A stretch of 64,000 bases of DNA from Minisyncoccota bacterium (lineage in GTDB: Bacteria; Patescibacteriota; Minisyncoccia; UBA6257; 1-14-0-10-44-23), in the NCBI GenBank assembly GCA_041389085.1, contig JAWKSL010000002.1, forward strand, positions 14,556 to 78,555, in the 5' to 3' direction. Positions 10,583-64,000 of this stretch are shown piece by piece. The position numbers were made by a program, and so were the translations under genes. The notes under the pieces are model-generated. The model did no database searches. It worked only from the letters and a program-made list of their open reading frames with translations, and had not been told where the DNA came from. Numbering within the stretch: the first letter of the stretch is position 1; the number at the start of each line of letters is the position of its first letter.

Positions 10583-10811
10583 CGGGCCTCCTTCTTTTTC
10601 CTTTATCTATTTACTCTTTGTATTTCAAGTTGTGCTATACTGTGAGTGTAATGAGTACAGCAGTTACTTGCGGGATATCGACAATGTAACTTCTAAACAA
10701 TTTGTGGCAGAGGAGGCGCTCATCGCGCCTTTTCTGTTTTTTTGACTACCTTTTTACAAAGTGGTATTCATATTAGGTACTTCAACTAACCCACTTGAAA
10801 GGAGGTGGTTC

Positions 10812-10976
10812 ATGCTTCGCTTCTGCGATGCTTGTTGCACCCCCAAACGGTGGGTGTTAAAGAGACAGTCTGGTCAACAGACTTGTCGGGATTGCTCCGA
10901 GAAGGCAGTAGCGCCCCCTCCGACAGCAATCTGCTGCCGTTGTGGTGAAAACAAGCCAGTTCATCGCCACACCTGA
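10812..10976 (+). CDS. small Cys-rich protein (54 aa; CDACC, CRDC, CCRCGE motifs) that reads into a tandem repeat
   Basis: RBS AAGGAGGTG before the ATG. The ORF terminates inside the first repeat unit, and later units are open in other frames. Confidence 0.35.
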   Translation: MLRFCDACCTPKRWVLKRQSGQQTCRDCSEKAVAPPPTAICCRCGENKPVHRHT

Positions 10977-11370
10977 CAATGACAGTGTCAAAGTGCTACC
11001 AACCCCGACAGCGACCTGTTGCCGTTGCGGCGAACAAGGCGGTTGCACGCCACACGCCTGACGGTCCGGAGTGTCAAAAGTGCTGCCAACCCCCGACAGC
11101 GACCTGTTGCCATTGCGGTGAAAACAAACCGGTTGCACGCCACACGCCTGACGGTCGGGTGCAAAAGTGCTACCAGCGTCCGACAGCGACCTGTTGCCGC
11201 TGTGGTGAGAAAAAGCCGGTTCATCGGCGCACGCCAGACGGACCGGAGTGTGCGAGTGTTGCCGGCTAGACTACCAGCGTCCGACAGCGACCTGTTGCCG
11301 CTGTGGTGAAAAGCCGGTTCATCGGCGCGCATGAACGGCCCGGAGTGCAAAAAGTGCTACCAGCGGCTAA
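10890..11370. repeat. tandem direct repeat of about 5-6 units of 80-81 bp (consensus ccgacagcgacctgttgccgNtgNggNgaaaacaaRccggttSaNcgccacacgcctgacggtccggagtgNcaaaagtgctRccaRc); each unit encodes about 27 aa ..TATCCxCGENKPVxRHTPDGPECQKC..
   Basis: Direct reading of the sequence. The region is GC-rich relative to its flanks. Confidence 0.7.
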
Positions 11371-11385: not shown

Positions 11386-11421
11386 GCACTGGGAAGGTAA
11401 TTCTTGCCAGTGCGTTTTTTT
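11386..11421 (+). terminator. rho-independent terminator (gcactggg...ccagtgc + TTTTTTT) closing the repeat locus
   Basis: 7-bp stem followed by a 7-T run. Confidence 0.55.
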
Positions 11422-11542
11422 ATTGCCGTTTTTTTTGATGATATAATTTTGTTGTGGTGTTGTGCATTCGAAGGGTTATCGTGACGTATACTCATTAAAC
11501 ACAAATTGGCATTGGGTCTATACTACAGTAACCACTTTGAGT

Positions 11543-12608
11543 GCGTAACTATTCGTGTGGTATATAATGAGGCTATATGGACTTCAGAAGAATGTTTCTT
11601 TAGTTGAATATACTTCTTTTTTAAGGTTGGAGGGCGGGCTGAAAACTTTGCTCTTGTTGAAAACTCGCTTGAGCTTGAGCGAGCGCTTTCTTCATATGCA
11701 GGAATGCTCCGATTACGTTTCTTGGGTATGGAACAAACACACTTATTTCTGACAAAGGGATTGAGGGGCTTGTAGTTATTCGCGAGGCGATGTGAAGCGC
11801 GATGGAAACGTGCTTATGGCCGATGCGGGAGTAGAGTGGGGTAGCTTTAGTAAAGACTTCGATTGAATCGAATTTGTGGGGGATGGAGCTTTTGAGCGGT
11901 ATTCCTGGCAGCGTTGGGGCTGCTATTTTTATAAACATTAGCGCTTACGGCCAGAGTGCTTCTGACACGGTGCTTTGGGTAGACGTTTTTGATAGGAGAG
12001 AAGATTGTGCGTCGGATGATTCGCGAGCATTTGCAGTGGGTTATAAGCAGTCTGTTTTTCAAGCGAAAGAAAAGGGGAATGTAATTCTGCGCGCTGCCTT
12101 CGAGCTTTCTCATGAGAACTACACCGCCGAGTATCAAGGGGCTCTCGATGTTGCCGCTGAGCTTTCTTTAGATACGAATAGTCTTGGTTCTCGAAGAAAT
12201 AATCCTTGAGGCGAGAAGCAGAGCAGGCTCTATATTTGAATATGGTAAAAGATGTCGTACCGCTGGCTCCTTTTTTAGAAACCCGCTTGTCACTGCGGAG
12301 CGAAGCAGAAAAGATTATCCAAGCTGACGAGTCGGGGAAGAGCACAGAGGCAATACGGAAAATGAATGCTGTTCATGGAGAGGGAGTGATCTACGCGTTT
12401 CTGCAGCACGTTATGCTTGCTGCTGGCTTTTCCAGGGGGCAGTGTTTGGCCTGTTTGTTTAAATGAAAAGAATTTGTTGAAGATGAGAATAAGGGCGAGG
12501 CTACAGCGCAGCAAATATACGATACGGCAAAGCAGATTGTGGCTACCTGCCAAGAAAAGCAGGGTGACTCTTGAACCTGAGGCTAGCCTTTTGGGTAAGT
12601 TTGACTAG
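11543..12608 (+). pseudogene. murB: UDP-N-acetylenolpyruvoylglucosamine reductase (MurB) reading frame broken by at least 4 frameshifts and in-frame stops
   Basis: MurB segments found in three different frames: NVSLVEYTSFLRLEGG; GTNTLISDKGIEGLVVI; DVKRDGNVLMADAGVEWGSF; VKTSIESNLWGMELLSGIPGSVGAAIFINISAYG; AFAVGYKQSVFQ...NVILRAAFEL; AGSFFRNPLV; VTLEPEASLLGKFD. They are colinear with E. coli MurB. Confidence 0.6.
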
Positions 12609-12687
12609 GAATTGGTAATTTTCCCTTTGGTGGCTCGTCTTGTATAATAGATAGTAAGAGGTCTATTATTCACCAATTTTGAAAACT

Positions 12688-13026
12688 ATGAAGCTAAACA
12701 TAAAGGCTACTGATTTGGAACTAAATGATGCGATGCGAACTTATATCGATGAGAAAATTGCATCGATCTCAAAATGGGTGAAACGCTACGACGGAGGGAA
12801 CGATTTGCTTTTAAACTTAGAGATAGCTCGCACTACTAAGCACCACCACAAGGGCGATGTGTTCTATGCAGAGGCTACCTTGCAGCTTCCTGACCGCGTT
12901 TTAAGGGCTGAGGTGACCGACTCTGATGTGAAGAAGGCACTTTTAAAAGTGCGTAGCATGCTCAAGCGCGATTTGCGTAAATACAAAACTGCGCGTATTT
13001 TCAAGATACGAAGGAAGGGGCGATAA
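12688..13026 (+). CDS. hpf: ribosome hibernation promoting factor / RaiA (S30AE family)
   Basis: MKLNIKATDLELNDAMRTYIDEKI... is typical of HPF. ATG at 12688 is preferred over the upstream TTG. Confidence 0.8.
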   Translation: MKLNIKATDLELNDAMRTYIDEKIASISKWVKRYDGGNDLLLNLEIARTTKHHHKGDVFYAEATLQLPDRVLRAEVTDSDVKKALLKVRSMLKRDLRKYKTARIFKIRRKGR

Positions 13027-48140: not shown

Positions 48141-49106
48141 ATGAAAAATATCAATACCGCAAGAGATTTCTTTTTGTATCTTTTTGCGACTGTGGCTGCT
48201 ATCTTTAGCGCCGTAAACATTATCGTATTGCTCTGGCAATACATAAATTATTTCTTCCCAGCTCCGTTTAGCTACTATTACGACGGGGTGAGTGGAGCTA
48301 TGAGATTTTCCATCTCAAGCTTAATCATCATCTTCCCACTCTACGTGTGGGTGATGTGGAGTCTTGGAAAAGACATCGATAGGCACCCTGAAAAGAAAGA
48401 CTTCTGGGTGCGCAAGTGGCTTATCTACATAACGCTTTTTGTAGCAGCGATGACCATGATTGTAGACTTGGTTGTTGTACTTAACACTTTCCTTGGCGGA
48501 GACTTTGCCGCTCGCTTTGTATTGAAGGCGCTTGCAGTGCTTGTTGTAGCGGCTGCGGTGTTTTCTTACTACACCTTCAACTTGAAGCGTGAGAGTGGGA
48601 AAGGACTTTCTACTCGAAAGACAATTGCTTGGGTGTCTTCAACAGTGCTTCTTGCTTTGATCGTTGGTGCATTCTTCATCGTAGGTAGCCCTGCGACAAG
48701 CCAAGACAAGCAGCTTGATAGCGAGCGTGTAGCCCACTTGAGCCAAATACAGTGGCAGGTGCTCGACCACTGGCGCCAGTCTGACGTACTTCCAGAAACT
48801 CTCGATGAGCTTAACGATCCTATAATTGGATTTGAAACTCCACGCGATCCAGAGACTCGCGAAGACTACGAATACACTAAGACTTCTGACCTTAGCTTCG
48901 AGCTCTGCGCTACCTTTGCAAGCGAGAGCCGAGACTTCGATCCTGAAGCCACCGATAGCTACGACGAGCGCGCAGCTATCGATTCTGGTGCCTACTATGG
49001 TGGGTATGAAGATTCTCGCTTCTGGCAACACGGAGAAGGAAGAACTTGCTTCGAGAGAACGATAGACCCTGAGAAGCACGCAGCTCCAAAGCCAGTTTAC
49101 TACTAG
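48141..49106 (+). CDS. DUF5671-like membrane protein
   Basis: Four N-terminal TM helices plus an acidic C-terminal extracytoplasmic region. The family call is tentative. Confidence 0.45.
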   Translation: MKNINTARDFFLYLFATVAAIFSAVNIIVLLWQYINYFFPAPFSYYYDGVSGAMRFSISSLIIIFPLYVWVMWSLGKDIDRHPEKKDFWVRKWLIYITLFVAAMTMIVDLVVVLNTFLGGDFAARFVLKALAVLVVAAAVFSYYTFNLKRESGKGLSTRKTIAWVSSTVLLALIVGAFFIVGSPATSQDKQLDSERVAHLSQIQWQVLDHWRQSDVLPETLDELNDPIIGFETPRDPETREDYEYTKTSDLSFELCATFASESRDFDPEATDSYDERAAIDSGAYYGGYEDSRFWQHGEGRTCFERTIDPEKHAAPKPVYY

Positions 49107-49157
49107 TATAAAAATGCTGAGAGCCGCCAACCCTAACGGGATGGCGGCTCTTTGCGT

Positions 49158-50042
49158 TCAGGCGAGCTCTCGTACAGGCGCGGCGGTGAGCCGAATCTGC
49201 ATGCGCTTGCTGCGCATCTTGATGTTTTTGGTGATGCCGAACCACTGGAGGGTCCAGATGAGGTAGCCTGTTGTGTCTACCTGCCACCATTTTTCGCCTT
49301 GGAACATCCACCACTTCTCATGGTGATGGTTGTTGTGCCAGCCCTCGCCACCCACAAGGAGCGCGAGGAGGAAGCTGTTGCGACTGGTGTCTTTCGTCTG
49401 GTAGGGACGCTTGCCCCAGAGGTGTGCCAGAGTGTTGATGGTGCTGGTAGCCTCTCCGAGCACTGCGGTGCTCAGGAAGAAAGAAATCAGCAAGCAACTC
49501 CACCCTCCGTAGAGGTAGCACGCTAGGCCCAGAAGGGCGAAGGGTACTATCTGTAGCCTCTCGAGCCACATGAGCTCGGGGAACTTGGCGAAGTCGGGGA
49601 TCTTCTTCTTGTAGTCGAGCTTGGGCCACCTGCTCAAGAACCAGCCCCACTGAGCGTAGGCAAAGCCGTGCTGAGTCGGGGAGTGCTTGTCGATGGGCTC
49701 GTCGCTGTTCCTGTGGTGGTCGCGATGTTCAGCTGCCCACCAAAGCGGGCCCTTTTGCATCGCGGTGCAACAGATCGCTCCCAGAACGAATTGAGAGAAG
49801 CGCTGGAAGCGCAACTCGTAGGTTCGGTGTGAGAAGTAGCGATGAAGACCGCCGGCTACCGCAAGCGCGCGTACGCGCCAGAGGATGAAGCCAAGCAGGT
49901 AGTCGCGCCAGCTTGCGTCGATGACGCCAGTAGCGTGAAGGACGATGCCCAGAACACCGAGAGTCTTCACGAGGAGGAACCCGATGGTGGTAGGGCTGAG
50001 CCAGTCGACCTTGGGCCGAGCAGCGTTTGTCGCCGTAGTCAT
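49158..50042 (-). CDS. acyl-lipid/acyl-CoA delta-9-type fatty acid desaturase
   Basis: Three His boxes HRYFSH, HRDHHRNSDEP and HNNHHHEKW. Strongly GC-rich relative to the rest of the window. Confidence 0.85.
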   Translation of the reverse strand: MTTATNAARPKVDWLSPTTIGFLLVKTLGVLGIVLHATGVIDASWRDYLLGFILWRVRALAVAGGLHRYFSHRTYELRFQRFSQFVLGAICCTAMQKGPLWWAAEHRDHHRNSDEPIDKHSPTQHGFAYAQWGWFLSRWPKLDYKKKIPDFAKFPELMWLERLQIVPFALLGLACYLYGGWSCLLISFFLSTAVLGEATSTINTLAHLWGKRPYQTKDTSRNSFLLALLVGGEGWHNNHHHEKWWMFQGEKWWQVDTTGYLIWTLQWFGITKNIKMRSKRMQIRLTAAPVRELA

Positions 50043-50111
50043 TTACTGACCTCTCTTTCGGCCTTTGGCCAGTGGTGCAAGGGGAATTCCTTACCCCTCT
50101 AGATTAGCACG

Positions 50112-50739
50112 TTAGCGTTTTCGAATGTAAGGCTTGACTGGTATGAGGAAACAAGACCCTATAAGGGAGATAGCGACTACTGCACCGATCAGGATTGGGA
50201 AGCCTTGGTTTGTCGCTATATACCCTCCGACTGCTGCAAAGGCTGCGCTGGTGATGTCGGTAAGAGTAAAGTAAACGCCCCACTCAACTCCTTCTTTTGC
50301 TCTGTCGATATGGCGGGTAAACATAGCCATGTAGGTAGGGAAGGTGAAGGCAGTGAAAATTCCGTAGATAAACTGCACGAGGTAAAGCTCTCCTGGGGTG
50401 TCGACGATGAGGTAGGTGAGTGGCATAAGGGAAATAAGGAAGGTAAAAACTATCATGAGCCAGAAGTCGTCTTTCTCGCCACGAATTTTGTCGATGATGT
50501 GAGCTATCGGAATTTGTAAAATGCTTTTGGTGAATAGGAAGATGGCAGCGGAAATTCCGGCTACTTCCGCGCTTCCGCCAACGATAAAGTCTTCAACAAA
50601 GAGTGCGAAGATAGGGCCTTAGGAGTCCTGAGGCACCGATGAGGATGGTGTCGGACATAATAAGGAAGCGCACTACGGGGTTTATATCGGCAAGGAAGTA
50701 GTGCATTTTTGATACTGCACGCTTTGTATGGTGGTTCAT
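50112..50739 (-). pseudogene. MFS transporter remnant: only about half a transporter, with a +1 frameshift
   Basis: MNHH...IMSDTILIGASGLL in one frame continues as GPIFALFVEDFIVGG...LIPVKPYIRKR in another. About 215 aa across 6 TM, against roughly 400 aa expected. Confidence 0.5.
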
Positions 50740-50776
50740 ATAGCTTCATTATAGGGCAGGTTTTACCCTGCCTAAA

Positions 50777-50980
50777 TTTAACGGCTCACAAACTCCAAGG
50801 AAGTACCGAATCGCGAAGTTTAACGGCTCACACGTACGTGTGAGCCGTTAAACTGGCTAGGCATCCCCAGTCTTGGCTGTCTTTCGCCCTTGCGGGCTCA
50901 AGACGAAGACTGAGAAGCCGTTAAAAGGATTGCCTAGAATGCAGTATTTATGCCTATTCTGTCCGTGTGAGCCGTTTAAC
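50777..50980. repeat. MITE-like element of about 205 bp bounded by 14-bp terminal inverted repeats (tttaacggctcaca / tgtgagccgtttaa). It contains the 36-bp palindrome gtttaacggctcacacgtacgtgtgagccgttaaac (50818..50853), also seen at 21832..21865.
   Basis: Direct sequence comparison; lies immediately upstream of tRNA-Ser(TGA). Confidence 0.55.
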
Positions 50981-51016
50981 TTGATTCTTATCTCTTAATT
51001 CTATATTCTAGTCCTA

Positions 51017-51107
51017 TTGGAGAGGTGGCTGAGTGGTCGAAGGCGGCTGTCTTGAAAACAGTTGGGGGTTCATAGCCTCCCGTGGGTTCGAATCCCACCC
51101 TCTCCGC
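51017..51107 (+). tRNA. tRNA-Ser (anticodon TGA), type II, CCA encoded
   Basis: Acceptor GGAGAGG/CCTCTCC, anticodon stem GCTGT/ACAGT with loop CTTGAAA, long variable arm, T arm GTGGGTTCGAATCCCAC. Confidence 0.9.
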
Positions 51108-51685
51108 CAAAGTCGAGATCCGAGCGCCCCTTGGGATCTGTTTTCTGTGGATAACTCATCTTGTATTAGCTTTTACTTTTTGTATAATATATATGAACGG
51201 TATGTTCTTTGAAATCAATTGTGTAGAAGTGGTTATTGCTTCGGAGATATAGATAGCTTAGCTTTAAGCTATTTGACGCCTCCTAGATTTGGGAGGGGAT
51301 TTCGCTCCTGGCATCCTTACTAGAGTCTCTCTAGAGTAGTAAGAGATGTCGAAGAGGGGCGATTTTAGGCAACAGAAGCATTTAAAAAAAATGATTGTTT
51401 GTCGGGACTACCCATAACTGCGGTTATTGGTACTACCGGAAGGTTGATCGAACTAATAACCGCGCGAATGGGTGTGTCCAAATATTATTATAAATATAAC
51501 CGTTCACCTTAATATAGAACTATCATGAAACACCTGATTAAAAGAACTGCACAACTGTACCTTCCGTATGACGGGGCGGCTGAATTAAAGCATGAAATTT
51601 TTCAGGGCTTTGTGAATACTACTTCAAGTAGTACGTATCCTGCGAGATTTGCTTTGCTAGCCGCCTCGTAGTTGTTTTTTATATT

Positions 51686-52012
51686 ATGTATTCTTTCCCA
51701 GAGTTGATTAAGAGAATTAGAAATGAGGCCAACCTTACACAGGTTGAATTTGCGAAGGCTCTAAATGTCTCAACTATCCTTGTTTCAATGGTCGAGACTG
51801 GCCAAAAGGAGGTTTCAAAGAAATTTCTTCTTCGACTTGCTGAGAGTTTAAATGTTCATCCGTCGTCTATTACCCCTTTTCTTTTTACTGAAGAAGGTGC
51901 TTCTATTGACCAACTTTCTACTATAGAAAGAAAATTTGTTGTGTGGGGTGAGAGAATGCAGGATTATTTAATACGAGATCGAGCACATCTTTTGCGCCAG
52001 TATGCGAATTAG
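51686..52012 (+). CDS. XRE-family helix-turn-helix protein
   Basis: ELIKRIRNEANLTQVEFAKALNVSTILVSMVETGQKEVS is the canonical Cro/C1-type HTH. Overlaps the RT gene by 11 nt. Confidence 0.7.
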   Translation: MYSFPELIKRIRNEANLTQVEFAKALNVSTILVSMVETGQKEVSKKFLLRLAESLNVHPSSITPFLFTEEGASIDQLSTIERKFVVWGERMQDYLIRDRAHLLRQYAN

Positions 52013-53003
52013 ACGGTACCCTAAGCTGGGGATAAGAAGCAAAAATGAGCTCGCAAAGCGCTTAAGTCACAAAAATTTTTCTACAAAAAATTCTCTTGCC
52101 CTTGTGAATGACGTTATTTCTAATTTCGATTTTTATTGGCATGACAATAAAAAGGAGTCAAATCCTCAAAAAAAGAAATATGTGCGCAGTGCAAAGTATA
52201 GCCCACTAGGAAAATTACTTACTAAAATTAACTCTAGAATTCTTGCTCCTTACGACAAGCTATTGCCAGGATTTATCTTTGGAGGCGTTCAGGGATTAAA
52301 CCATAAAGCGGCAGTGGCTTATCTCCTTGGGCAAAAAAGAAAGCGAGTTCTTTTGAAGGTGGATATCTCTAGGTTTTTTGAACAGATTAAAGATGAGAGG
52401 GTTTTCGATTTTTTTAAGCATAAGTGTGAATGTGGGGTGAGAGGGGCCAAGCTTTTAGCTAGTTTGTGTACCGTTCCCATTGGTCCTAAAAACTTTCCTA
52501 CGTCACATATCAGGACTATTGCTCGTGGCTTTGCTACGTCTCCTCGTCTCGCAATCTGGTGCAATTTAGACACTTTTATTAAACTTGACCGTCTTATTCG
52601 CACTGAATTGCGTGGTAAGGATCCGAGAATTGCAATTTATGTTGATGATATAGGCGTGACTGCAAGCAGAGTTTCAGTTGAGCAAATGGCTCTTCTTTAC
52701 AAAAAAATCGAAAAATTACTCCAGGAGGATAGAAATCAGGGCCTGCCACTTAATGCAGAGAAAACAAGAATAATAGAGCATACTGGGAAAACTTTTGACG
52801 GAAATGGTGTATTAATAACTAGTGAGTGGGGCTATGAGCACTTAGGGGCGCAAATGAAAAGAAATTCCTTAACGATTGGGAAAAAGACAAAAGCAAAATT
52901 AATTGATGTGACACAGAAGTGGGAGCGTGGTGAAGGTGGTATGCTGGTTAAGCTTCGTCGCAAAGCTTTATTGCGTCATAAGAGGTACATGGAGTCGGCT
53001 TAA
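52002..53003 (+). CDS. reverse transcriptase, 333 aa, RT domain only; retron-/Abi-/defence-associated type
   Basis: RT motifs in order: motif 1/2 YVRSAKYSPLGKLLTKINSRIL and PGFIFGGVQGLNHKAAVAY; motif A LLKVDISRFFEQI; motif B ARGFATSPRLAIWCN; motif C IAIYVDDIGV; motif D/E GLPLNAEKTRII. No maturase or endonuclease extension. Confidence 0.75.
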   Translation: MRIRRYPKLGIRSKNELAKRLSHKNFSTKNSLALVNDVISNFDFYWHDNKKESNPQKKKYVRSAKYSPLGKLLTKINSRILAPYDKLLPGFIFGGVQGLNHKAAVAYLLGQKRKRVLLKVDISRFFEQIKDERVFDFFKHKCECGVRGAKLLASLCTVPIGPKNFPTSHIRTIARGFATSPRLAIWCNLDTFIKLDRLIRTELRGKDPRIAIYVDDIGVTASRVSVEQMALLYKKIEKLLQEDRNQGLPLNAEKTRIIEHTGKTFDGNGVLITSEWGYEHLGAQMKRNSLTIGKKTKAKLIDVTQKWERGEGGMLVKLRRKALLRHKRYMESA

Positions 53004-53012
53004 TCAATACAA

Positions 53013-53040
53013 AAAAGGCCCTTGCGGGCCTTTTTAGTTT
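53013..53040. terminator. bidirectional terminator aaaaaaggcccttgcgggccttttt; the same hairpin recurs at 54475 and 55927
   Basis: Perfect hairpin with flanking A- and T-runs. Confidence 0.6.
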
Positions 53041-53162
53041 TCTTAGAGGTACTCGTTGATGGGACTTTGATTTTATTGTCAGTTTTAATAGCTGTGGTAG
53101 GATCTTTTTAGTTCATTTCACCCCGAAATTAGTTTCGGGTCAAACCACGAAAGTGAGGCACT

Positions 53163-54417
53163 ATGCGTACTGCACTTGCAGCTTTCCTTGTAGTTCTGTG
53201 TAGCCTTTGGGCTGCCGCAGCGGCTGTTGCCGATCCGGTGACGGTGCGTGTGAAGAGCAACGATGGCTCCTACTCATACGTGACGCGAGACCTTCCAGCT
53301 TCGAGCTGTGAGGTTTGGACCATCGATTTTCGGCGCGATGACGGAACGATTTGGGGCAGTGAATCTGCCCGGCCCGATCGCGCTGGCGTCGAAGATCGGG
53401 CAGCGAAGTACAACAACTTCCTGAGTTGGATCGGACAATCTCGGGAAGTCGAAGTCGAAGGAGCACTACAACAACCCCTCTCCTGCGTACTGTTCGGTTT
53501 TCAGTAGTGATACTGCAATGCTGGACAAGTTGCGTGGAGACGGGGAGGTGAATTTTCCATTCAAGACGTTGGCAAAAGCTCAGAATGAGGTCTTGGAAAG
53601 GATCCGAAACTATGTGGCAGGGGCAAGGACCTACTACGAGCAGTTCAAAGCTGCTCCCGGGCGGTCTTTCATGGAGTACGGGCGAGTCTTGGCTGACGGA
53701 ATGGCTAAGACGCAGAAGATTGAGCAGGAGCTGCTCACGCCCGCTCTGAGGTTGCCATTTGAGGTGATGAATCCCGATGGTTTTGCTCCTTTCCTAACTG
53801 GCATCGACGAGGAGGGTGTCACTTGGATGCGCTCTTGGGCTCGCGCAGTGCGAGCTGAGGAGCCGAGAATTCAGCAAGGGATTCGGACTATTCAGCAAGT
53901 GATGCGCGATAATCAAAAAGATGCACGCGAGAACTCTCGTGAGTATGACGCTGCAGTTGCTAGGATTGAGCGTCTTCGGCGCGACATCCGCAACGCCCGT
54001 GATCCTCGTATGATCGACATCCTTGAGAGGGATTTGGCGCGAGCCGAAGAGAAGCGTGACTACGCCATGGAAAGGCAATGGAGTTTTGATGAGCAGAGGG
54101 AGGCAAATGAAGAGCGAATCCGCAATCTGCGTGAGCGTGAGCTCGAGGTTCCCGAGAAGCTTTCGTTCATTCTTCAATTTTCCTACAGCTGTGGTTGCGC
54201 ACTGGAAGTGAGCGAGGTGTTTGAAGATGGCGATAGGGAGGGGGATGGTGTGGAGCGACTTAGCGATCGTTGCTCTGTATGTGGCGGTAGCGGTAAGGTT
54301 GATGTCATGGAGAACGGTGAGCTTTGGCGAGACTACATCAAGCGAATCCCAATCTCCGCGCGACCTCCGGCGCGGCGGATTACCTGCCCTGAGTGCGGTG
54401 GCACTGGCAAGCGGTGA
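53163..54417 (+). pseudogene. secreted protein with charged coiled-coil region and C-terminal DnaJ-type CxxCxGxG zinc-finger motifs, copy 1; frameshifted (split 53163..53507 and 53518..54417)
   Basis: N-terminal 45 aa are identical to copy 2. An insertion/duplication around 53400..53480 (KYNNF... versus EHYNNPSP) shifts the frame. C-terminus CSVCGGSGKV...CPECGGTGKR. Confidence 0.5.
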
Positions 54418-54474
54418 CCCACCTTGTGAGGCCTGGCGTTCTACGGAACGCCAGGCCTTTCGTTTTTTAATATC

Positions 54475-54765
54475 AAAAAAGGCCCTTGCGGGCCTTTTTA
54501 GTTTTCTTAGAGGTACTCGTTGATGGGACTTTGATTTTATTGTCAGTTTTAATAGCTGTGGTAGGATCTTTTTAGTTCATTTCACCCCGAAATTAGTTTC
54601 GGGTCAAACCACGAAAGTGAGGGCACTATGCGTACTGCACTTGCAGCTTTCCTTGTAGTTCTGTGTAGCCTTTGGGCTGCCGCAGCGGCTGTTGCCGATC
54701 CGGTGACGGTGCGTGTGAAGAGCAACGATGGCTCCTACTCATACGTGACGCGAGACCTCCCGGTC
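54475..54765 (+). repeat. about 290-bp near-identical direct repeat of 53013..53300, covering the terminator, the promoter region and the first about 45 codons
   Basis: Direct comparison. Both repeats include a truncated '...INEYL*' 3' gene end on the minus strand; an intact copy of that gene lies at 55967..56782. Confidence 0.8.
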
Positions 54766-55869
54766 TCAAGCTGTGTTCTCTGGACTGTCGACTTCCGTCG
54801 AGATGATGGAACAGTTTGGGGTAGCGAGTCTGACTCTGACAAGGCTAGGGTTGAAAAGAGGGCGGCAGCATCTCGCGCGTTTGTTAGTTTGATAGACGCT
54901 CTTGCGAAGTCTTCTTCACAAGAACACTATAACAACCCCTCTCCTATGTATTGCTCGGTTTTTAGTAGTGATACTAAGATCTTGGGTAAATTGGGTGGAG
55001 ATGGTGAGGGAAATTTTCCATTCAAGGTCTTTAGCAATGCCCGGGCCGATGTTCGTTCAAGAATTGTAAATTTTTCAACTGGCGTGCGAACTTACTACGA
55101 ACAGTTCAAGTCTGCTCCCGGGCGGTCTTTCATGGAGTATGGGCGCGCCTTGGTTGATGGAATGGCAAAGGTGCAGAAAATTGAGCAACAAATGCTGTCC
55201 CCATCTCTCAGCTTGCCGTTTGAGCTTACGAGCTCGAATGGCTTTGAGCCGTTCTTTATTGGACTCGACCGTGAGGGTACTGCGCGGATGCGTTCTTGGG
55301 CTCGTTCTATCCAAGGAGAGGAGGCGATCATCCAAAAGGAGATTGAGACTGTCCGGTGGGCAATGCGTGAAAACAAAAAGCTCGCCGGCCTCTACTCACG
55401 TGAGCATGATGTTGCGGTTGCGAAGATTGAGCGCCTTAGGCGCAGGCTGCGCTCGGAGCGCGATCCTGAAAGGATTGATGCTTTGAAGCAGGATTTAGAT
55501 CTCGCAATTGAAAAGCGTGATCGCGCTCTTGAGCGGCGCTGGGAGTTTGAACAGATTGAAGATGACGATGAGGAGAAGCTTTTCGATCTCCGTGCGCGCG
55601 AAGGTAAAATTCCTGATAGGCTTTCATTTGTTTCTAGTTTTGCTCGTAGCTGCGGCTTCGAGTTAGATGCTGAGACGGTCTTTGGTAGTCCCGACCCAGG
55701 TCAAGAAGCGAGCGGGGATAGTTGTCCTACCTGCAAAGGCACTGGACGAATTCATCCTCAACGTCGTTCTTCTTCGGACGATGCTCCTCCTGGCTCTAGT
55801 ACAGCCAGTCCTGCACTTTCGGAGTCTGGAGAAACTTGCCCCACATGCGGTGGCACTGGCAAGCGGTGA
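54628..55869 (+). CDS. secreted protein with charged coiled-coil region and two C-terminal CxxCxGxG zinc-finger motifs, copy 2, intact (413 aa)
   Basis: Signal peptide MRTALAAFLVVLCSLWAAAAAVA; ER/K-rich helical region; CPTCKGTGRI...CPTCGGTGKR. GC-rich. Confidence 0.55.
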   Translation: MRTALAAFLVVLCSLWAAAAAVADPVTVRVKSNDGSYSYVTRDLPVSSCVLWTVDFRRDDGTVWGSESDSDKARVEKRAAASRAFVSLIDALAKSSSQEHYNNPSPMYCSVFSSDTKILGKLGGDGEGNFPFKVFSNARADVRSRIVNFSTGVRTYYEQFKSAPGRSFMEYGRALVDGMAKVQKIEQQMLSPSLSLPFELTSSNGFEPFFIGLDREGTARMRSWARSIQGEEAIIQKEIETVRWAMRENKKLAGLYSREHDVAVAKIERLRRRLRSERDPERIDALKQDLDLAIEKRDRALERRWEFEQIEDDDEEKLFDLRAREGKIPDRLSFVSSFARSCGFELDAETVFGSPDPGQEASGDSCPTCKGTGRIHPQRRSSSDDAPPGSSTASPALSESGETCPTCGGTGKR

Positions 55870-55966
55870 CCCACCTTGTGAGGCCTGGCGTTCTACGGAA
55901 CGCCAGGCCTTTCGTTTTTTAATATCAAAAAAGGCCCTTGCGGGCCTTTTTAGTTTTCTTAGATTC

Positions 55967-56782
55967 TTAGAGGTACTCGTTGATGAGTTCTTCTATTGCT
56001 TCATTGAGGTAGTCGATTACGTCTTCTACTTCGTTGAAAGCTTGTGAGTAGTCGTTGTCGTCGAGCTCGTCCTCAGCATCGTCGAGTGCATCTTCTGCAT
56101 CTTCAAGTGAGTCTTCTGCATCGCGTACGTCTAGTCCGTAGTTGTCTGCATCATTTATCGCATCGTCTACGAAGTCGAGCATTTCTTCTGCAAAGTCGAT
56201 AGCGTCTTCAACAGCTGCTTCGTTTTTGCTGGTGCGTCCCTCTGTGTCTTCGATGTAGTCTTGAGTTAGCTCAGCTGCATCGCGAGCAAAGGTTGCTACA
56301 ACTTCTGCTTGGTAGTAGTCAGCGTCTCTGCGAGCGTCGTCTGCTTCATCTACCCAGTCCTGCGCGAAGTCCATTTGGTCTTCTGCAAGGTTGATCGCGT
56401 CGTTGAAGGTGTTCTCATCGTCTGCATCGTCTATCGCGTCTTCAAGGTCGTCGATAGCGTCTTCTGCATCTTCGATTGCATCTTCAGCAACTGCGTTGCT
56501 TGAGTTGTTGTATCCTGGCCCTACTGGAGTTACTACTGGTGGGTAGTAAGTAGGGTAGGTAGGATAGGTTGGATAATAGTTTTGGCTTTGAAGCGCTTGA
56601 ATTTGCGCCAAAAGCTGGTTGATCAACGCTTGAAGCTGTTGGATCTGCTCCTGCTCGTTTGAGTAGGTGTTGTAGGTAGGTGGGTATGCAACTATTGAAA
56701 GGGCTTGAGCTTTCCCTGCTGGAAGAGCAATAGAAAGAGCTGCCACTACCATCGCTGCAAACACTGATACTTTCTTAAACAT
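55967..56782 (-). CDS. secreted, extremely acidic repeat protein (EDAIDDAEDA-type repeats; PTY repeats)
   Basis: Signal peptide MFKKVSVFAAMVVAALSIALPAGKAQA, then YPTYPTY and a D/E/A-rich repetitive region. The 3' end lies inside the third copy of the repeat/terminator module. Confidence 0.5.
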   Translation of the reverse strand: MFKKVSVFAAMVVAALSIALPAGKAQALSIVAYPPTYNTYSNEQEQIQQLQALINQLLAQIQALQSQNYYPTYPTYPTYYPPVVTPVGPGYNNSSNAVAEDAIEDAEDAIDDLEDAIDDADDENTFNDAINLAEDQMDFAQDWVDEADDARRDADYYQAEVVATFARDAAELTQDYIEDTEGRTSKNEAAVEDAIDFAEEMLDFVDDAINDADNYGLDVRDAEDSLEDAEDALDDAEDELDDNDYSQAFNEVEDVIDYLNEAIEELINEYL

Positions 56783-56855
56783 TTTTATAAAATTAGTACT
56801 AATTTGTATTGGCCCCGATAATAACAGATATGCCCTCTTTTGGCAAGAAAAGGGC

Positions 56856-57863
56856 CTAATTTTGAGCAAAGTGTGGATTTACCATCTCAAACCTATTGTC
56901 GAGGCTAAATCGGCCGCCACGGGTGATAAATAGGGCTGAGAGCACGCCAAAGAGGGTAACGTGGCTGCTGACTTCTTCCCCAAAGTAGAAGAATGAGAGG
57001 GTAAGAACTATAAAGGTAACAGCGGTGACAAGCCGGGTGCGAAGCCCAAGGATAAGTGCTGTGCCAAGAACTACTTCGATAATGCCGGTAGCGAAGACCC
57101 ACATGTGTACGTCTACTGGAACTACATTCATAAGGCCGAAGTTTTTGATTACCATTTCGGTAACGTGTGGGTTGAGCATCTTTTCATAGATACCAAGAAA
57201 GACCATTGCTCCTCCAATGCCGACACGAAGAATAAGTGGGATGATTGAGCGGAAGCGCTGGAGGGCGGTAGTGATGTTTGGAATGTTGAGCAAGTCATCT
57301 ACGCCTGGTCGCTTGTGGTTGAGGAAAAGTAGTGCAACTGCCGCTGCGAGAACCTCAAAATTTCCAATTGCGTAGAAGTCTTTGGTGAGGGCAAATACGT
57401 AGAGCAAGATCGTGATTAAAATGACTGGTGCTATAAGTAGTCCGGCAAGCATAAAGAAGCCAAGAAGAATTTGGATAAGACCTAAGTACGTGTAGCCAGG
57501 AAAGGCAGGAGAAATAAGCCAGCCTCCGGTGCCTGCGCCGATAAGGGCGATACCAAGAGAGAGGCGCAAAATCCAGGGAATAAACTCTACGTAGTTGTCT
57601 GCTTTCTCACGGATAGTGGAAATTTCTTGCTTACAGAAGGGGATAACTTGCGCGATGATGAACAGGAGCGCTGCGACTGCTACCGTAGAGAGGATAAGCA
57701 CCATGTTGTGCGGCGAGTTGAACACTTCCATGAGAAACTGCTTGTCGCCTCCGAGCTGGCCGGTAAAATCGTTTTCTTCTACGAGGTAGCGGATGTGGGC
57801 AAAGGCCTTGAGGGGTAAAAATGCCGTAAAAATAGAGAGGAGTGTAAGGAACTTTTTGCGCAT
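56856..57863 (-). CDS. polytopic membrane protein, DoxX-like C-terminal half
   Basis: About 8 predicted TM helices; C-terminal part resembles the DoxX family. Confidence 0.45.
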   Translation of the reverse strand: MRKKFLTLLSIFTAFLPLKAFAHIRYLVEENDFTGQLGGDKQFLMEVFNSPHNMVLILSTVAVAALLFIIAQVIPFCKQEISTIREKADNYVEFIPWILRLSLGIALIGAGTGGWLISPAFPGYTYLGLIQILLGFFMLAGLLIAPVILITILLYVFALTKDFYAIGNFEVLAAAVALLFLNHKRPGVDDLLNIPNITTALQRFRSIIPLILRVGIGGAMVFLGIYEKMLNPHVTEMVIKNFGLMNVVPVDVHMWVFATGIIEVVLGTALILGLRTRLVTAVTFIVLTLSFFYFGEEVSSHVTLFGVLSALFITRGGRFSLDNRFEMVNPHFAQN

Positions 57864-60364: not shown

Positions 60365-61574
60365 ATGAATCAGCAGCCACTTCCACAAGCAGAGCCTGTT
60401 TTTCTTGTTGAAACAGATAAGATTGTCGCAAACCCTTATCAGCCGCGACGACATTTTGATGAAGAAAAGCTTAAGGACTTGGCGAACTCTATTCGTGAGC
60501 TGGGAATTTTGCAGCCACTAGTAGTAACTAAAGTAGAAGAAGACAGTCCGCAGGGGCTTGCTATTCGCTACGAGCTTATCGCCGGAGAGCGACGACTTCC
60601 GTGCATCTCGCATGCTTGGGCTTGCTCGTGTGCCAGCTATTGTGAAGAACGTGAAACTCGATCAGCACCGCCTTGAAATGGCGATTGTTGAAAACGTGCA
60701 GCGCGCAGACCTTAACGCTATTGAAGCTGCAAAGGCTTACAATCGTTTGCAGGATGAGTTTAATCTCACGCAACGTGAGATAGCGAGCAGGGTAGGAAAG
60801 AGTAGAGCTTCGATTGCAAACACAATGCGCCTTTTGAGTTTGCCAAGCGAAGTGCAAGAGGCAGTTGGCTCTGGGAGGGTAAGCGAAAGCCAAGCGCGCC
60901 TTTTGATGACTATCGACGATGCGGCGAGTCAGAGCAGAATTTTTAAAGAAATATTGTTTAAGAACTTAAGTGTTCGTGAACTTAAGAATGAAATAGAGAA
61001 GTATCGTCGCGATGCTCGTGTACCACAAAAGCAATCTATGTTTAGCAGAGACCCTGTGGCTCTAAACCTGCAGAGAGCTCTTGAAGAGTTTTTGGGTGCT
61101 GATGTGCGCCTTGATTCGAGCGGAGAGAGCGGAAAGATAACAATTCGTTTTCAATCTAAGGAAGAGCTTCAGGCTATTGTAGAAAAGATGACCTCACACG
61201 AGAGTGTTGATACGCACCAGACTGTAAGCAATATGTATGAGCGCACTCAGCAGACCGATGTAAGCGGCATGATGGGACTTGATACCTCACTTTCAGAACC
61301 ATCCTCCTTCGCTAACCCTCCTTCGCACGAAGCTACGGAAGGGCAAGGAGCTATGGCGGACAAGGAGCCTGTGCGCGAAGAGCCTGTTCAAGTAGAAAAT
61401 AGTTTTGATATGAGCGACGTTGTTGCGCCACCAGCTGTACAGTCAGAAATAGAAGATACTTTCCACACTACTGAGCAAGCGCATGAAGATTCTTTGCCGA
61501 TGGAGCAGCCTGAGCACGACATACTTGCTAGCTACGGATTTGGAGGAGAGGATACGCAAAGCAACTCTTTTTAA
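60365..61574 (+). CDS. parB: ParB/Spo0J partition protein, apparent +1 frameshift near 60598 (split ORFs 60365..60676 and 60558..61574)
   Basis: ParB box YELIAGERRL...RASRMLGLARVPAIV is split between two frames at cttCCgtgc. HTH and C-terminal dimerisation regions follow. Confidence 0.7.
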
Positions 61575-61619
61575 AAATAAACACCCCATGCGCGTGAACG
61601 CATAGGGTGCAAGCTGCGC

Positions 61620-61889
61620 CTAGCAACCGTAGGGTTGAGGCGTCTGTGTTTGGAGTTGCTCGGTGCTTGATGCGACGGAGTGCACGCTGAGAGCGCAGTC
61701 GCTCAGGTCTTGCCCGGTGACTCCCTTGCACACTTCGGTGAAGAAGGCTCCCCACTGAGCCTTGGCTTCTTCAGCACAGATCTTGTCGTCGGCGATGAGG
61801 CCGGCGACGATCTTGATTGGCTCGCTGTTGAGTGGGAAGTCGACGATCTTGTCGCCGCAGCAGATGCGCAAACGAAGCTGCTTTTGCAT
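61620..61889 (-). CDS. small Cys-containing hypothetical protein in a GC-rich segment
   Basis: RBS GGAGGG 5 nt before the ATG; 89 aa; no family recognised. Confidence 0.35.
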   Translation of the reverse strand: MQKQLRLRICCGDKIVDFPLNSEPIKIVAGLIADDKICAEEAKAQWGAFFTEVCKGVTGQDLSDCALSVHSVASSTEQLQTQTPQPYGC

Positions 61890-62093
61890 GATTCCCTCCA
61901 GGGTTGTGACTTATGTCTTATATCGCTTTCCTTTTGTAGCGTCAAGCTACTTTTTCCCCTTTGCAGCTTTGGCGGCTTCTTTCTTCTTTCGCTTTTCAAG
62001 AGCCTCTTGCCCCCGCGTGCTTCACGCGCTGTAGTAAAGCCCAACAGTCAGGCTGGGGCTTACTACGGGGCTACGCTTGCTTCTTCTGGATTT

Positions 62094-64000
62094 CTACTTC
62101 TTTCCTTTCGCAGCTTTCGCGGCCTCTTTCTTCTTTCGCTTTTCAAGAGCCGCTTGCTTCTCTTCTGCGGTGCGTGCTACTGGTGGAACTTTGGTTGGGT
62201 CTTCCCAGGTGGCAAAGTCGCAGTCTGGGTAATTGTTGCAGCCATAAAAGAGGCGGCGGCCACGTCCTCGGGTACGCTTTGCTACGAGCTCGTCTCCACA
62301 TTCAGGGCACTTAACTCCTGTTTTTTGCGGCTCGTTTTCTTTGAGCGGCTTGGCATTTTTACAGTCAGGGAAGGCGGTGCAGGCAAGGAACTTTCCGAAG
62401 CGGCCAAACTTTATCGCCATTTGTGCTCCACACTTTTCACACTTTTCATCGACAACTTCTTCATTGTGCTCTTTGTTTACCTCAGCCATTTTCTCTTCGA
62501 GGTTTTTGTGGAATGGCCCGTAGAACTCTTTCATTATCTTTCGCCAGTCGGCTTTTCCGCTTGCTATTTTGTCGAACTCTTCTTCCATGTTTGCGGTAAA
62601 CTCGAGGTCTACTATTTGAGGGAAGTGTTCTACAAGGAGTTTGTTTACCATTTCTCCGATTTCGGTTGGCTTAAATTTGCCAGCATCTTTTTCTACATAG
62701 TTGCGGGCTTGGATGGTTGAAATAGTTGGCACGTAGGTTGATGGGCGGCCGATACCAAACTCTTCGAGGGTTTTGATAAGGCGTGCTTCACTGTAGCGTG
62801 GTGGTGGTTCGGTAAAGTGCTGTGTTGGGATTACTTGTGCGAGGGTGAGTTTTTCACCTTCGGTAACTTCTGGGATTTCGCGCTCTTCAAACTTTTGTGA
62901 AAATACTTTCAGGAACCCGTCGAACACGAGCTGGCTTCCACTAGTGGTGAGCTGGTAGGTTGAGTTTCCTTTTGCATCTACTTCGAGCTTGCGCGTTTTA
63001 AAACGTGCCTCTGGCATCTGTGAGGCCATAAAGCGCTGCCAGATAAGGCGGTAGAGCTTTCGCGCACCTTCTTCTTTTACGGTTATGTCTTCTGCTGTTG
63101 CTGTGCTTGTTGGGCGGATAGCTTCGTGAGCTTCTTGCGCAAGCTTTGATTTACCCTTAAAGGTTCGTGGGGTTTCAAGTGCGTACTCGTTTCCGAAGGT
63201 TTGGCTAAGATATTCTTTTGCAAACACGAGAGACTCTTTAGAAAGGTTTACTGAGTCGGTTCTCATGTAGGTGATGAGTCCGTTTTCGTACAGCATTTGC
63301 GCAAACATCATGGTGCGCTTTGCTGAATAGCCAAGGCGCGCACTTGCTGTTTGCTGGAGGGTGCTTGTCGTAAATGGAGGGAGGGGAGAGCGCTTCTTTT
63401 CTCCTTCGGTGAGTGAGGCGACGGTGTACTCTGCATTTTTCAAATCTTGCTCAATTTCATCTGCAGTTGTTTTGTTTGGAATCGCGAACTTATCGAGTGT
63501 TTTGTCGTCTTTCTTTTTTAGATCGATAAGGAAGGGCTCTGCCTTTTTGTTTTTCACCTCAGCTTGAATACTCCAGTACTCTTCTGGCTTGAAAGCTTTG
63601 ATTTCGTTTTCGCGATCGACAATAAGGCGCAGTGCTACTGATTGCACGCGACCAGCTGATAGGCCCTTTGCTACTTTTTCCCAGAGAAACGGTGAAAGCT
63701 CGTATCCTACGATGCGGTCGAGTACGCGGCGTGCTTGCTGGGCATCTACAAGCTCATCGATGATGTCGCGTGGGTTTTCGAGCGCGTGGTGAATAGCCGA
63801 CTTGGTGATTTCATGAAAAACAATACGTTTGATTGGAGGCTCTTTTCTTGGAGCTCTAAGTCAACTTTCATTGGGCGCTTACCATGTACCTTTCCTTTTA
63901 CTATTTGCTCAAGGTGCCAGGCAATTGCTTCTCCTTCGCGGTCTTCATCGCTTGCAAGAATAATGTTGGTGCTTTTGCTTGCGAGCTTCTTAATTTCGTT
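62094..64000 (-). CDS. topA: DNA topoisomerase I (3'-partial view: gene start lies beyond the window end); apparent frameshift near 63850..63870 between the Toprim domain and domain 2
   Basis: Toprim [16 protein letters not shown] in one frame upstream; [13 protein letters not shown]...[15 protein letters not shown] continues in another. C-terminal C4 zinc ribbons CEKCGAQM...CTAFPDC and CPECGDEL...CNNYPDC, plus a Lys-rich tail. Confidence 0.85.

Follow-up and report, generated by a model that had tools for sequence, protein, structure and literature searches.

Identical boundaries and diverged interiors in a tandem pair of orphan genes for putatively secreted CxxCxGxG proteins of a Paceibacterota bacterium

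Introduction

When two neighbouring genes are identical at both ends, does this mean that the genes themselves were duplicated recently? The question is raised by a locus in a 64,000-nt stretch (hereafter the window) of the Minisyncoccota metagenome-assembled genome (MAG) GCA_041389085.1 (contig JAWKSL010000002.1, positions 14,556 to 78,555, forward strand), where two paralogous genes for putatively secreted proteins with CxxCxGxG cysteine motifs stand head to tail. The initial annotation, made from the DNA sequence without database searches, took the pair for the outcome of recent unequal recombination, with the first gene (copy 1) already being inactivated. Here we show that every feature described for the locus is there, but that the age it assigned to the duplication is contradicted by the coding sequences. 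The reading we favour, with a probability of roughly 55%, is that of an old tandem pair of orphan genes, encoding secreted coiled-coil proteins with a Cys4 knuckle, whose boundaries were recently homogenised by homologous recombination. As a phenomenon this is a case of ordinary tandem paralogues and thus of a known kind, while the protein family is new and uncharacterised.

Results and Discussion

Repeat architecture of the locus

The locus has the layout A-B1-A-B2-A, i.e. two head-to-tail units with a period of 1464 nt in which a short boundary segment, A, alternates with a longer unit, B (Table 1). Each B unit is ~1.41 kb (~1.46 kb with A), and the order within a unit is A, promoter-like site, short 5' untranslated region (UTR), ribosome-binding site (RBS) GTGAGG, coding sequence (CDS) and GC-rich terminator. 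The terminator, AGGCCTGGCGTTCTACGGAACGCCAGGCCT, is predicted to fold with -30.2 kcal/mol (z = -7.3) and occurs exactly twice in the window, once after each gene, as had been described. Segment A is 52 nt long and is made up of a terminator hairpin, AAAAAGGCCCTTGCGGGCCTTTTT (-15.8 kcal/mol, z = -3.7), and the sequence TTCTTAGAGGTACTCGTTGATG, which follows each copy of the hairpin and is the reverse complement of the end of a convergent gene for an acidic protein (...INEYL*, the last five codons and the stop). The hairpin was found exactly three times in the window, and shuffled controls gave 0 matches for both the hairpin and the terminator. This confirmed the earlier observation that a fossil gene end precedes each unit and that its live copy belongs to the acidic-protein gene. 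The small hairpin in the 5' UTR did not fold significantly better than expected (z = -1.4), and an Rfam search over 50500-57000 returned a tRNA only.

The three copies of A are nearly the same. A1, which begins 7 nt past the stop codon of an upstream reverse transcriptase (RT) gene, is identical to A2, and the sole difference of A3 from both is an 8-nt tandem duplication of TTCTTAGA (55956-55963 and 55964-55971). All three have a 38-nt core in common, and right outside this core the left and right contexts of A2 differ from those of A1 and A3. No further copy of A or of the unit ends was found within the window.

Table 1. Positions of the tandem units, their parts and the adjoining genes in the window.
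Feature	Position	Strand	Remarks
Unit 1	53010-54473	+	from repeat comparison
A1, first boundary repeat	53010-53061	.	bidirectional hairpin 53012-53035 and acidic-gene 3' fossil 53040-53061 (reverse complement = INEYL*)
Promoter-like site, unit 1	53076-53103	+	TTGTCA, 16-nt spacer, TG-TAGGAT; followed by small 5' UTR hairpin (about 53121-53140) and RBS GTGAGG
Copy 1 CDS, codons 1-90	53163-53432	+	signal peptide and N-terminal beta-rich domain
1-nt insertion in copy 1	53433	+	ATC-G-GAC vs ATA-GAC in copy 2; original frame stops at 53505-53507
Copy 1 CDS, codons 91-417, shifted frame	53434-54417	+	open throughout; motifs CSVCGGSG (54271-54294) and CPECGGTG (54385-54408)
Terminator T1	54428-54469	+	14-bp GC-rich stem, then T tract
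Unit 2	54474-55925	+	from repeat comparison
A2, second boundary repeat	54474-54525	.	100% identity to A1
Promoter-like site, unit 2	54540-54567	+	identical to the unit 1 site
Copy 2 CDS, intact, 413 aa	54628-55869	+	signal peptide, N-domain, helical region, coiled-coil hairpin (aa 215-340), motifs CPTCKGTG (55723-55746) and CPTCGGTG (55837-55860)
Terminator T2	55880-55921	+	identical to T1
A3, third boundary repeat	55926-55985	.	live 3' end and terminator of the acidic-protein gene
Acidic-protein gene, convergent	55967-56782	-	A1 and A2 fossils derive from its last five codons and stop
Retron-like module	51019-53003	+	directly after tRNA-Ser(tga)
Structured non-coding stretch	about 51230-51520		RNA fold of 51230-51690, z = -5.2
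Small open reading frame (ORF), 48 aa	51525-51671		candidate toxin
Cro/C1-type helix-turn-helix (HTH), 108 aa	51686-52012	+	PADLOC HTH_VI 7.7e-13; overlaps the RT start
RT, 333 aa, YVDD	52002-53003	+	Pfam RVT_1 3.4e-10; best match PADLOC RT_VI 1.6e-24

Identical ends and diverged middles

The two units are exactly identical at both ends. The 5' identity block consists of two exact tracts, 53010-53158 = 54474-54622 (149 nt) and 53159-53293 = 54624-54758 (135 nt), 284 nt in total, which are separated by a 1-nt G indel in the RBS region. It spans the 52-nt A, the promoter-like site, the 5' UTR and the first 44 codons, in good agreement with the earlier statement that the paralogues share the 5' UTR, the signal peptide and about 45 codons. 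The 3' block (54394-54511 = 55846-55963, 118 nt exact) runs from the last codons through the terminator into the next A. The middles of the units are ~33% diverged, and at this level of divergence 284 nt without a substitution cannot be due to chance. The breakpoints are sharp, since identity drops at 53294 and rises again at 54394.

The age of the two genes was tested by aligning copy 2 with frame-corrected copy 1 codon by codon. Between codon 45 and the last motif, the proportion of synonymous differences (pS) was 0.73, i.e. saturated, and that of nonsynonymous differences (pN) 0.29, corresponding to a nonsynonymous to synonymous ratio (omega) of about 0.13. In the first 44 codons together with 150 nt upstream there were 0-1 differences between the copies. 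Since the synonymous sites of the first 44 codons have not diverged like those of the rest of the gene, selection alone is not what keeps the ends identical. The combination of saturated middles and identical ends means that the middles descend from old paralogues, which have been under purifying selection, whereas the ends have a very recent shared ancestry. The latter would be explained by gene conversion, by unequal crossing-over or by recombination during integration. The identity of ~290 nt is therefore a product of recombination and no evidence of a young duplication, and the origin of the pair by recent unequal recombination, as first proposed for it, is contradicted. The case illustrates how identical repeat ends can falsely suggest that a duplication is young.

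The pattern resembles tandem arrays that undergo concerted evolution, where head-to-tail units likewise show exact tracts, sharp breakpoints and old, diverged interiors. Two features are different here, as the boundary repeat holds the 3' fossil of a neighbouring gene and occurs three times, and the interiors are unlike in GC content at third codon positions (GC3).

The frameshift in copy 1

Copy 2 is an intact ORF, and copy 1 is broken by one extra nucleotide, as had been noted; tblastn placed the switch of frame between 53432 and 53434. Once the extra base is removed, copy 1 encodes a protein of 417 aa with no further defect, so that the frameshift is its only lesion and the 327 codons downstream of it are open and conserved. 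To judge whether such a lesion in a MAG is real it should be weighed against the state of the housekeeping genes on the same contig, and here several of these are interrupted as well. The parB gene (60365-61574) is split inside ParB_N, with profile positions 6-62 in the ORF 60365-60673 and 62-95 in the ORF 60558-61571, by an extra C near 60598. In topA (62094-64000) the Toprim and Topoisom_bac domains are in different frames, with the shift lying within 63830-63860, and a murB-like gene (about 11400-12470) changes frame at least three times. It is very unlikely that a streamlined genome really carries a broken topA, which implies that the assembly contains indel errors; the murB-like gene may be affected by the same errors, or is possibly a real pseudogene. 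Given the frameshifts in these three genes, an error in the consensus is no less likely in copy 1 than genuine inactivation, and the claim that this copy is already being inactivated is not supported. Programmed frameshifting was considered as well and set aside, as by inspection no slippery motif is present in the overlap of the two frames (53425-53507). When codon scores were scanned for frameshifts over the whole window, the signal was too unspecific for an error rate.

The encoded proteins and their cysteine motifs

When inspected, the start of both proteins, MRTALAAFLVVLCSLWAAAAAVA|DP, has the form of a Sec signal peptide cleaved at an AxA site (AVA|DP), and both are thus predicted to be exported, leaving a mature protein of ~390 aa. 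Two AlphaFold models were confident only for an antiparallel helical hairpin (aa 215-340), with a predicted local distance difference test (pLDDT) score of about 90-96; the N-terminal beta-rich domain was poorly modelled and the C-terminus had a pLDDT below 50. The earlier description as secreted coiled-coil proteins agrees with the predicted signal peptide and with this hairpin. Foldseek against the PDB gave generic coiled coils only and no match at E <= 1e-3, the full-length profile did not match any PDB sequence, and a single C-terminal sequence gave nothing significant against the PDB. Searches with PADLOC, NCBIfam and PHROGs also gave no meaningful match for the CxxC proteins.

Each protein ends with two exact CxxCxGxG motifs, as previously reported (Table 1). 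The eight Cys and Gly residues of the motifs are the same in both copies, and the spacer between the motifs differs in both length and sequence. The motifs had been identified as a DnaJ zinc finger, and this stands for the motif only. Pfam DnaJ_CXXCXGXG (PF00684) was the top match for both whole proteins and for the C-terminal fragment of copy 2, and the second for that of copy 1, but all scores fell short of the gathering threshold of 32.7 bits (whole proteins 18.9 and 18.3, C-terminal fragments 17.6-21.2). With a profile of the C-terminal module, the first match was the E. coli DnaJ cysteine-rich domain 1EXK (E = 7e-7); this profile has four rows, two from the window proteins and two from a distant relative, P0003 (see below), and the P0003 rows help the match. 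Neither Pfam nor NCBIfam gave a match to a J domain or to DnaJ_C. The DnaJ cysteine-rich domain has four motifs that form two zinc centres, and DnaJ is cytoplasmic. The window proteins have in common with it the exact CxxCxGxG knuckle, conserved between the paralogues, but they have only two motifs, enough for one metal centre, split by a non-conserved spacer of ~30 residues, and they have a signal peptide and no J domain or glycine/phenylalanine-rich (G/F) region. Because there are two motifs only, scores below threshold and no J domain, the resemblance to DnaJ is one at the level of the motif. The motif is thus DnaJ-type, in proteins that fall outside the DnaJ cysteine-rich domain family.

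Stand-alone CxxCxGxG modules are also found in DnaJ-like zinc finger proteins without a J domain, such as anti-TRAP (PF15777) and the plant proteins PSA2, LQY1, CYO1 and BSD2. Anti-TRAP was among the weak matches to the window proteins, but there is no significant sequence relationship with this group (E 0.0009 or weaker, below the cut-offs), and its members are small and do not have the N-domain and coiled coil of the window proteins. PSA2 is located in the thylakoid lumen, which is extracytoplasmic, and has been credited with protein-disulfide isomerase activity (PMC4806229). By analogy, the cysteines of the exported window proteins could act in thiol exchange, as proposed for PSA2. From the motif, the knuckles would be expected to build a single Cys4 metal site or else, if extracellular, two disulfides. 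HP0958 and CT398 (3NA7, 4ILO) show a similar build, with a long antiparallel helical hairpin and a terminal Cys4 module, in their case a C4 zinc ribbon. The Foldseek match to them is not significant (TM-score normalised to the target 0.42-0.50, E = 0.17-0.3) and rests on the generic coiled coil, there is no sequence similarity, and those proteins are cytoplasmic. Our best guess, made with low confidence, is a surface or extracellular protein with a structural or adhesive role.

Relatives of the protein family

Among 5.8 billion proteins searched with a word index, only the two window genes came up; they are recorded, under the locus tags R3B52_02215 and R3B52_02220, as hypothetical proteins of a Candidatus Paceibacterota MAG. 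The sequence P0001 was seen once among about 15 billion proteins, and exact-sequence look-ups of P0001 and P0002 led to no other assembly. In a full HMMER profile search, 1.84 billion representatives yielded just two further, marginal hits, P0004, which was matched in the N-domain (E = 4.9e-4), and P0003, which was matched in the CxxC repeats (E = 4e-5). P0003 is a protein of 133 aa with four CxxCxGxG motifs, and shares with copy 1 a GxV…W..WRDYI extension. P0004 (485 aa) is encoded in a MAG with 72% GC (GCA_964570285.1) and has in common with the window proteins the signal peptide and the N-terminal 190 residues (BLASTP 5e-14, 26% identity); its signal peptide (AQA|E) is directly followed by a conserved VxVRVK, and its C-terminus is a coiled coil without CxxC motifs. 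A search with P0004 itself gave no relatives. Within its locus (L001, 9039-12974), the P0004 gene lies between a full DDE transposase gene (11535-12974) and, on the other side, a fragment of the same gene (9039-9413), which suggests a mobile context. When the flanking DoxX-like gene of the window was used as a synteny query, one locus with 42% identity was found, and its neighbours are not shared.

To the depth of these searches the family is new and nearly orphan. It combines predicted export with a DnaJ-style pair of cysteine knuckles and could thereby be of interest for work on the surface proteins of episymbionts in the candidate phyla radiation (CPR).

How the array may have arisen

According to the reading we favour, each B unit would be transcribed on its own, from a promoter-like site ahead of the RBS and CDS to a strong intrinsic terminator. 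The coding regions would have split long ago and then been kept by purifying selection, and the boundaries, i.e. the 3' end of the CDS, the terminator, A, the promoter, the 5' UTR and the first 44 codons, would have been equalised recently via gene conversion or unequal crossing-over. The neighbouring acidic-protein gene would be the source of segment A, which corresponds to its 3' end and terminator, and it would follow that the array was built in this genomic context.

Several observations weigh against this reading. A single, simple duplication would not yield three copies of A with A1 right after the RT stop codon. No related locus with which the history of the array could be compared was found among the genomes, metagenomes, viral contigs, plasmids and phages searched. 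Outside the coiled coil the structure models are poor (mean pLDDT 54 and 57). Finally, the middles differ in GC3, with 0.593 in copy 1 vs 0.462 in copy 2, and a paired sign test on 359 aligned codons gave 98 vs 56 (p = 9e-4). Such a gap is unexpected for paralogues that have long been in the same genome; it can be argued that the middles did not share one genome for the whole time of their divergence, and this suggests separate acquisition. The GC3 of the host is 0.458 +/- 0.05 (13 host genes in the window), and both copies fit the synonymous codon usage of the host worse than every host gene tested. The GC excess of copy 2 lies in codon positions 1 and 2 and hence in the amino-acid composition. 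As for total GC, the region had been called GC-rich, which is true but modest, with 0.535 in unit 1 and 0.506 in unit 2 where the window averages 0.466; among 1464-nt windows the units rank at the 98th and 92nd percentile.

The GC3 gap leaves room for the main rival, the accretion of cassettes, an explanation that we consider possible but on balance unlikely. B1 and B2 would then go back to a small mobilisable unit, as its diverged alleles or xenologues, and each would have been inserted at the 3' end of the acidic-protein gene. Entry would have occurred through a Campbell-type single crossover of a circular A+B, or through some site-specific recombinase, with A as an attachment (att)-like scar by which the gene end is regenerated. 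The layout A-B1-A-B2-A, in which A covers the 3' end and terminator of a gene, is a classical signature of integration, and the GC3 gap between B1 (0.59) and B2 (0.46) and the poor fit of both to the host codon usage are in line with it. So are the position of the sole distant homologue, P0004, between a DDE transposase gene and its fragment in a 72% GC genome, and a second gene-3'-end fossil at topA, beside a GC-rich small ORF. Set against this, the ORFs scanned between 28 and 64 kb yielded no integrase or recombinase, A and the unit ends have no further copies in the window, the boundary GTTGATG|G fails the GTTRRRY core of integrons, the units have promoter-like sites of their own, and no related cassette was found in the collections searched. 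If it were true, this explanation would add a recombinase-independent shuffling of surface-protein genes in ultra-small bacteria. An integron cassette array proper was rejected, since IntI was not found among the same ORFs, the junction reads GTTGATG|GGAC rather than GTTRRRY, and the units carry their own promoter-like sites and terminators.

A more far-reaching version, which we regard as speculative and improbable, is that the units belong to an undescribed class of small, integrase-less cassettes of CPR bacteria that move between strains by recombination at the 52-nt repeat and stack in tandem. At the target gene, the 52-nt repeat would restore both the 3' end and the terminator, and the fossil at topA would be a second footprint of the same process; both suppositions share the low probability of the version as a whole. 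With equally little confidence, the cargo would be the orphan exported family with a coiled coil and Cys4 knuckle, acting at the surface of an episymbiont.

It is slightly less probable still that the tandem is an artefact of assembly, in which two strain alleles of a single-copy gene were threaded serially through a collapsed repeat. The sequence is a MAG, P0001 has been encountered a single time, the shared segments show the exact identity that a single graph node would give, and topA and parB show that the consensus has problems elsewhere. However, the junction (T1, A2, the fossil and GGACTTTG) is distinct, and its contexts are unlike those of A1 and A3 outside the 38-nt core; an assembly with k above about 40, or one from long reads, would therefore need real reads that span it. 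In addition, the 5' blocks differ by the 1-nt indel and A3 has its own 8-nt duplication, and a divergence of 33% with saturated synonymous sites is far beyond strain variation.

It is very unlikely that unequal recombination gave rise to the tandem only recently and that the copies then diverged rapidly, with copy 1 beginning to turn into a pseudogene. The identical ends and the single frameshift would fit, but a pS of 0.73 in the middle and about 0 at the ends is impossible from one recent event, an omega of about 0.13 indicates long-term purifying selection, and for the lesion in copy 1 sequencing error is a strong alternative, in view of the broken frames of topA, parB and the murB-like gene. 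A recent duplication is tenable only if one of the middles was afterwards replaced by foreign DNA, which in effect is the accretion of cassettes again.

A product of the RT, either as the template and variable repeats of a diversity-generating retroelement (DGR) or as another RT-made duplication, has a negligible probability: an RT with YVDD does end at 53003, directly before the first repeat, but the substitutions are not adenine-specific (by unit 1 base, A 96/367, G 117, C 95, T 59), the RT is best classified as retron Type VI and is paired with HTH_VI, homologous retron modules have unrelated neighbours, and the repeats are 1.4 kb long and include promoters and terminators. A DGR was also rejected on its own account, with all substitution classes present, the RT scoring best as retron Type VI and no accessory variability determinant found.

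The neighbouring retron-like module

The RT upstream of the array appears, from its gene content, to be part of a complete Type VI retron-like module (Table 1). The window module has the Type VI layout described in bioRxiv 10.1101/2025.10.22.683967 and PMC7736814, and with 108 aa its HTH protein is inside the size range of 91-110 aa given for this type (PMC7736814). As in Type VI retrons such as Retron-Vpa2, a non-coding region predicted to be structured, a small ORF, an HTH gene and an RT gene follow each other in the same order; the difference is that the host of the window module is a CPR (Paceibacterota) bacterium. With a GC content of 0.395 the module is in the lowest percentile of the window.

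At E <= 1e-10 the RT has 433 homologues, whose named sources are Patescibacteria, Saccharimonadales, Saccharibacteria or Paceibacterota, and hundreds of them reach 53-60% identity. A module of small ORF, HTH and RT was present in the four loci checked, where the neighbouring genes varied and were unrelated. In three of the homologous loci (L003, L005, L006) an ORF of 48-50 aa is found at the same position, and these ORFs have an (E/Q)L(Y/W)(L/H)PY motif in common. Since the same module occurs elsewhere beside unrelated genes, the retron is an element separate from the tandem genes, with no part in the repeat. The idea that the tandem genes are cargo of the retron was likewise discarded on account of the variable contexts of homologous retrons. 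A check for an island boundary found no att-like repeat of the tRNA-Ser 3' end.

Other features of the window

The product of the acidic-protein gene is predicted to be secreted and contains 70 D+E vs 6 K+R residues (isoelectric point 4.05). The gene has 21-nt periodic repeats, which encode DAxEDAxDD helices, and a YPTYPTYPTYYPP stretch, and in Pfam its protein gave weak sub-threshold matches only (DUF4398, PMEI).

The second gene-3'-end fossil (61947-62010) matches the topA 3' end (62094-62157) to 89%. Beside it, on the minus strand, lies a GC-rich small ORF for a Cys-rich protein of ~89 aa (about 61619-61888) with an RBS of its own, and the arrangement of fossil and small ORF (window 61575-62160) resembles the pattern seen with the fossil of the acidic-gene end.

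At 10761-11361 there is a GC-rich tandem repeat with a period of 87-101 nt, about 4 copies and 80% matches. It encodes Cys-rich units of the form …TATCC(R/H)CGE(N/K)KPV.R.TPDG…(K/S)C…, which had no match in Pfam and whose frame is broken over several ORFs.

The most GC-rich stretch of the window, with values up to 0.60, is 48400-50200. It contains a fatty-acid desaturase gene (49158-50042, minus strand), adjoined by a truncated fragment of a major facilitator superfamily (MFS) transporter gene (50112-50456), and because the GC3 of the desaturase gene is 0.77, compared with about 0.46 in the host, this gene was probably acquired horizontally.

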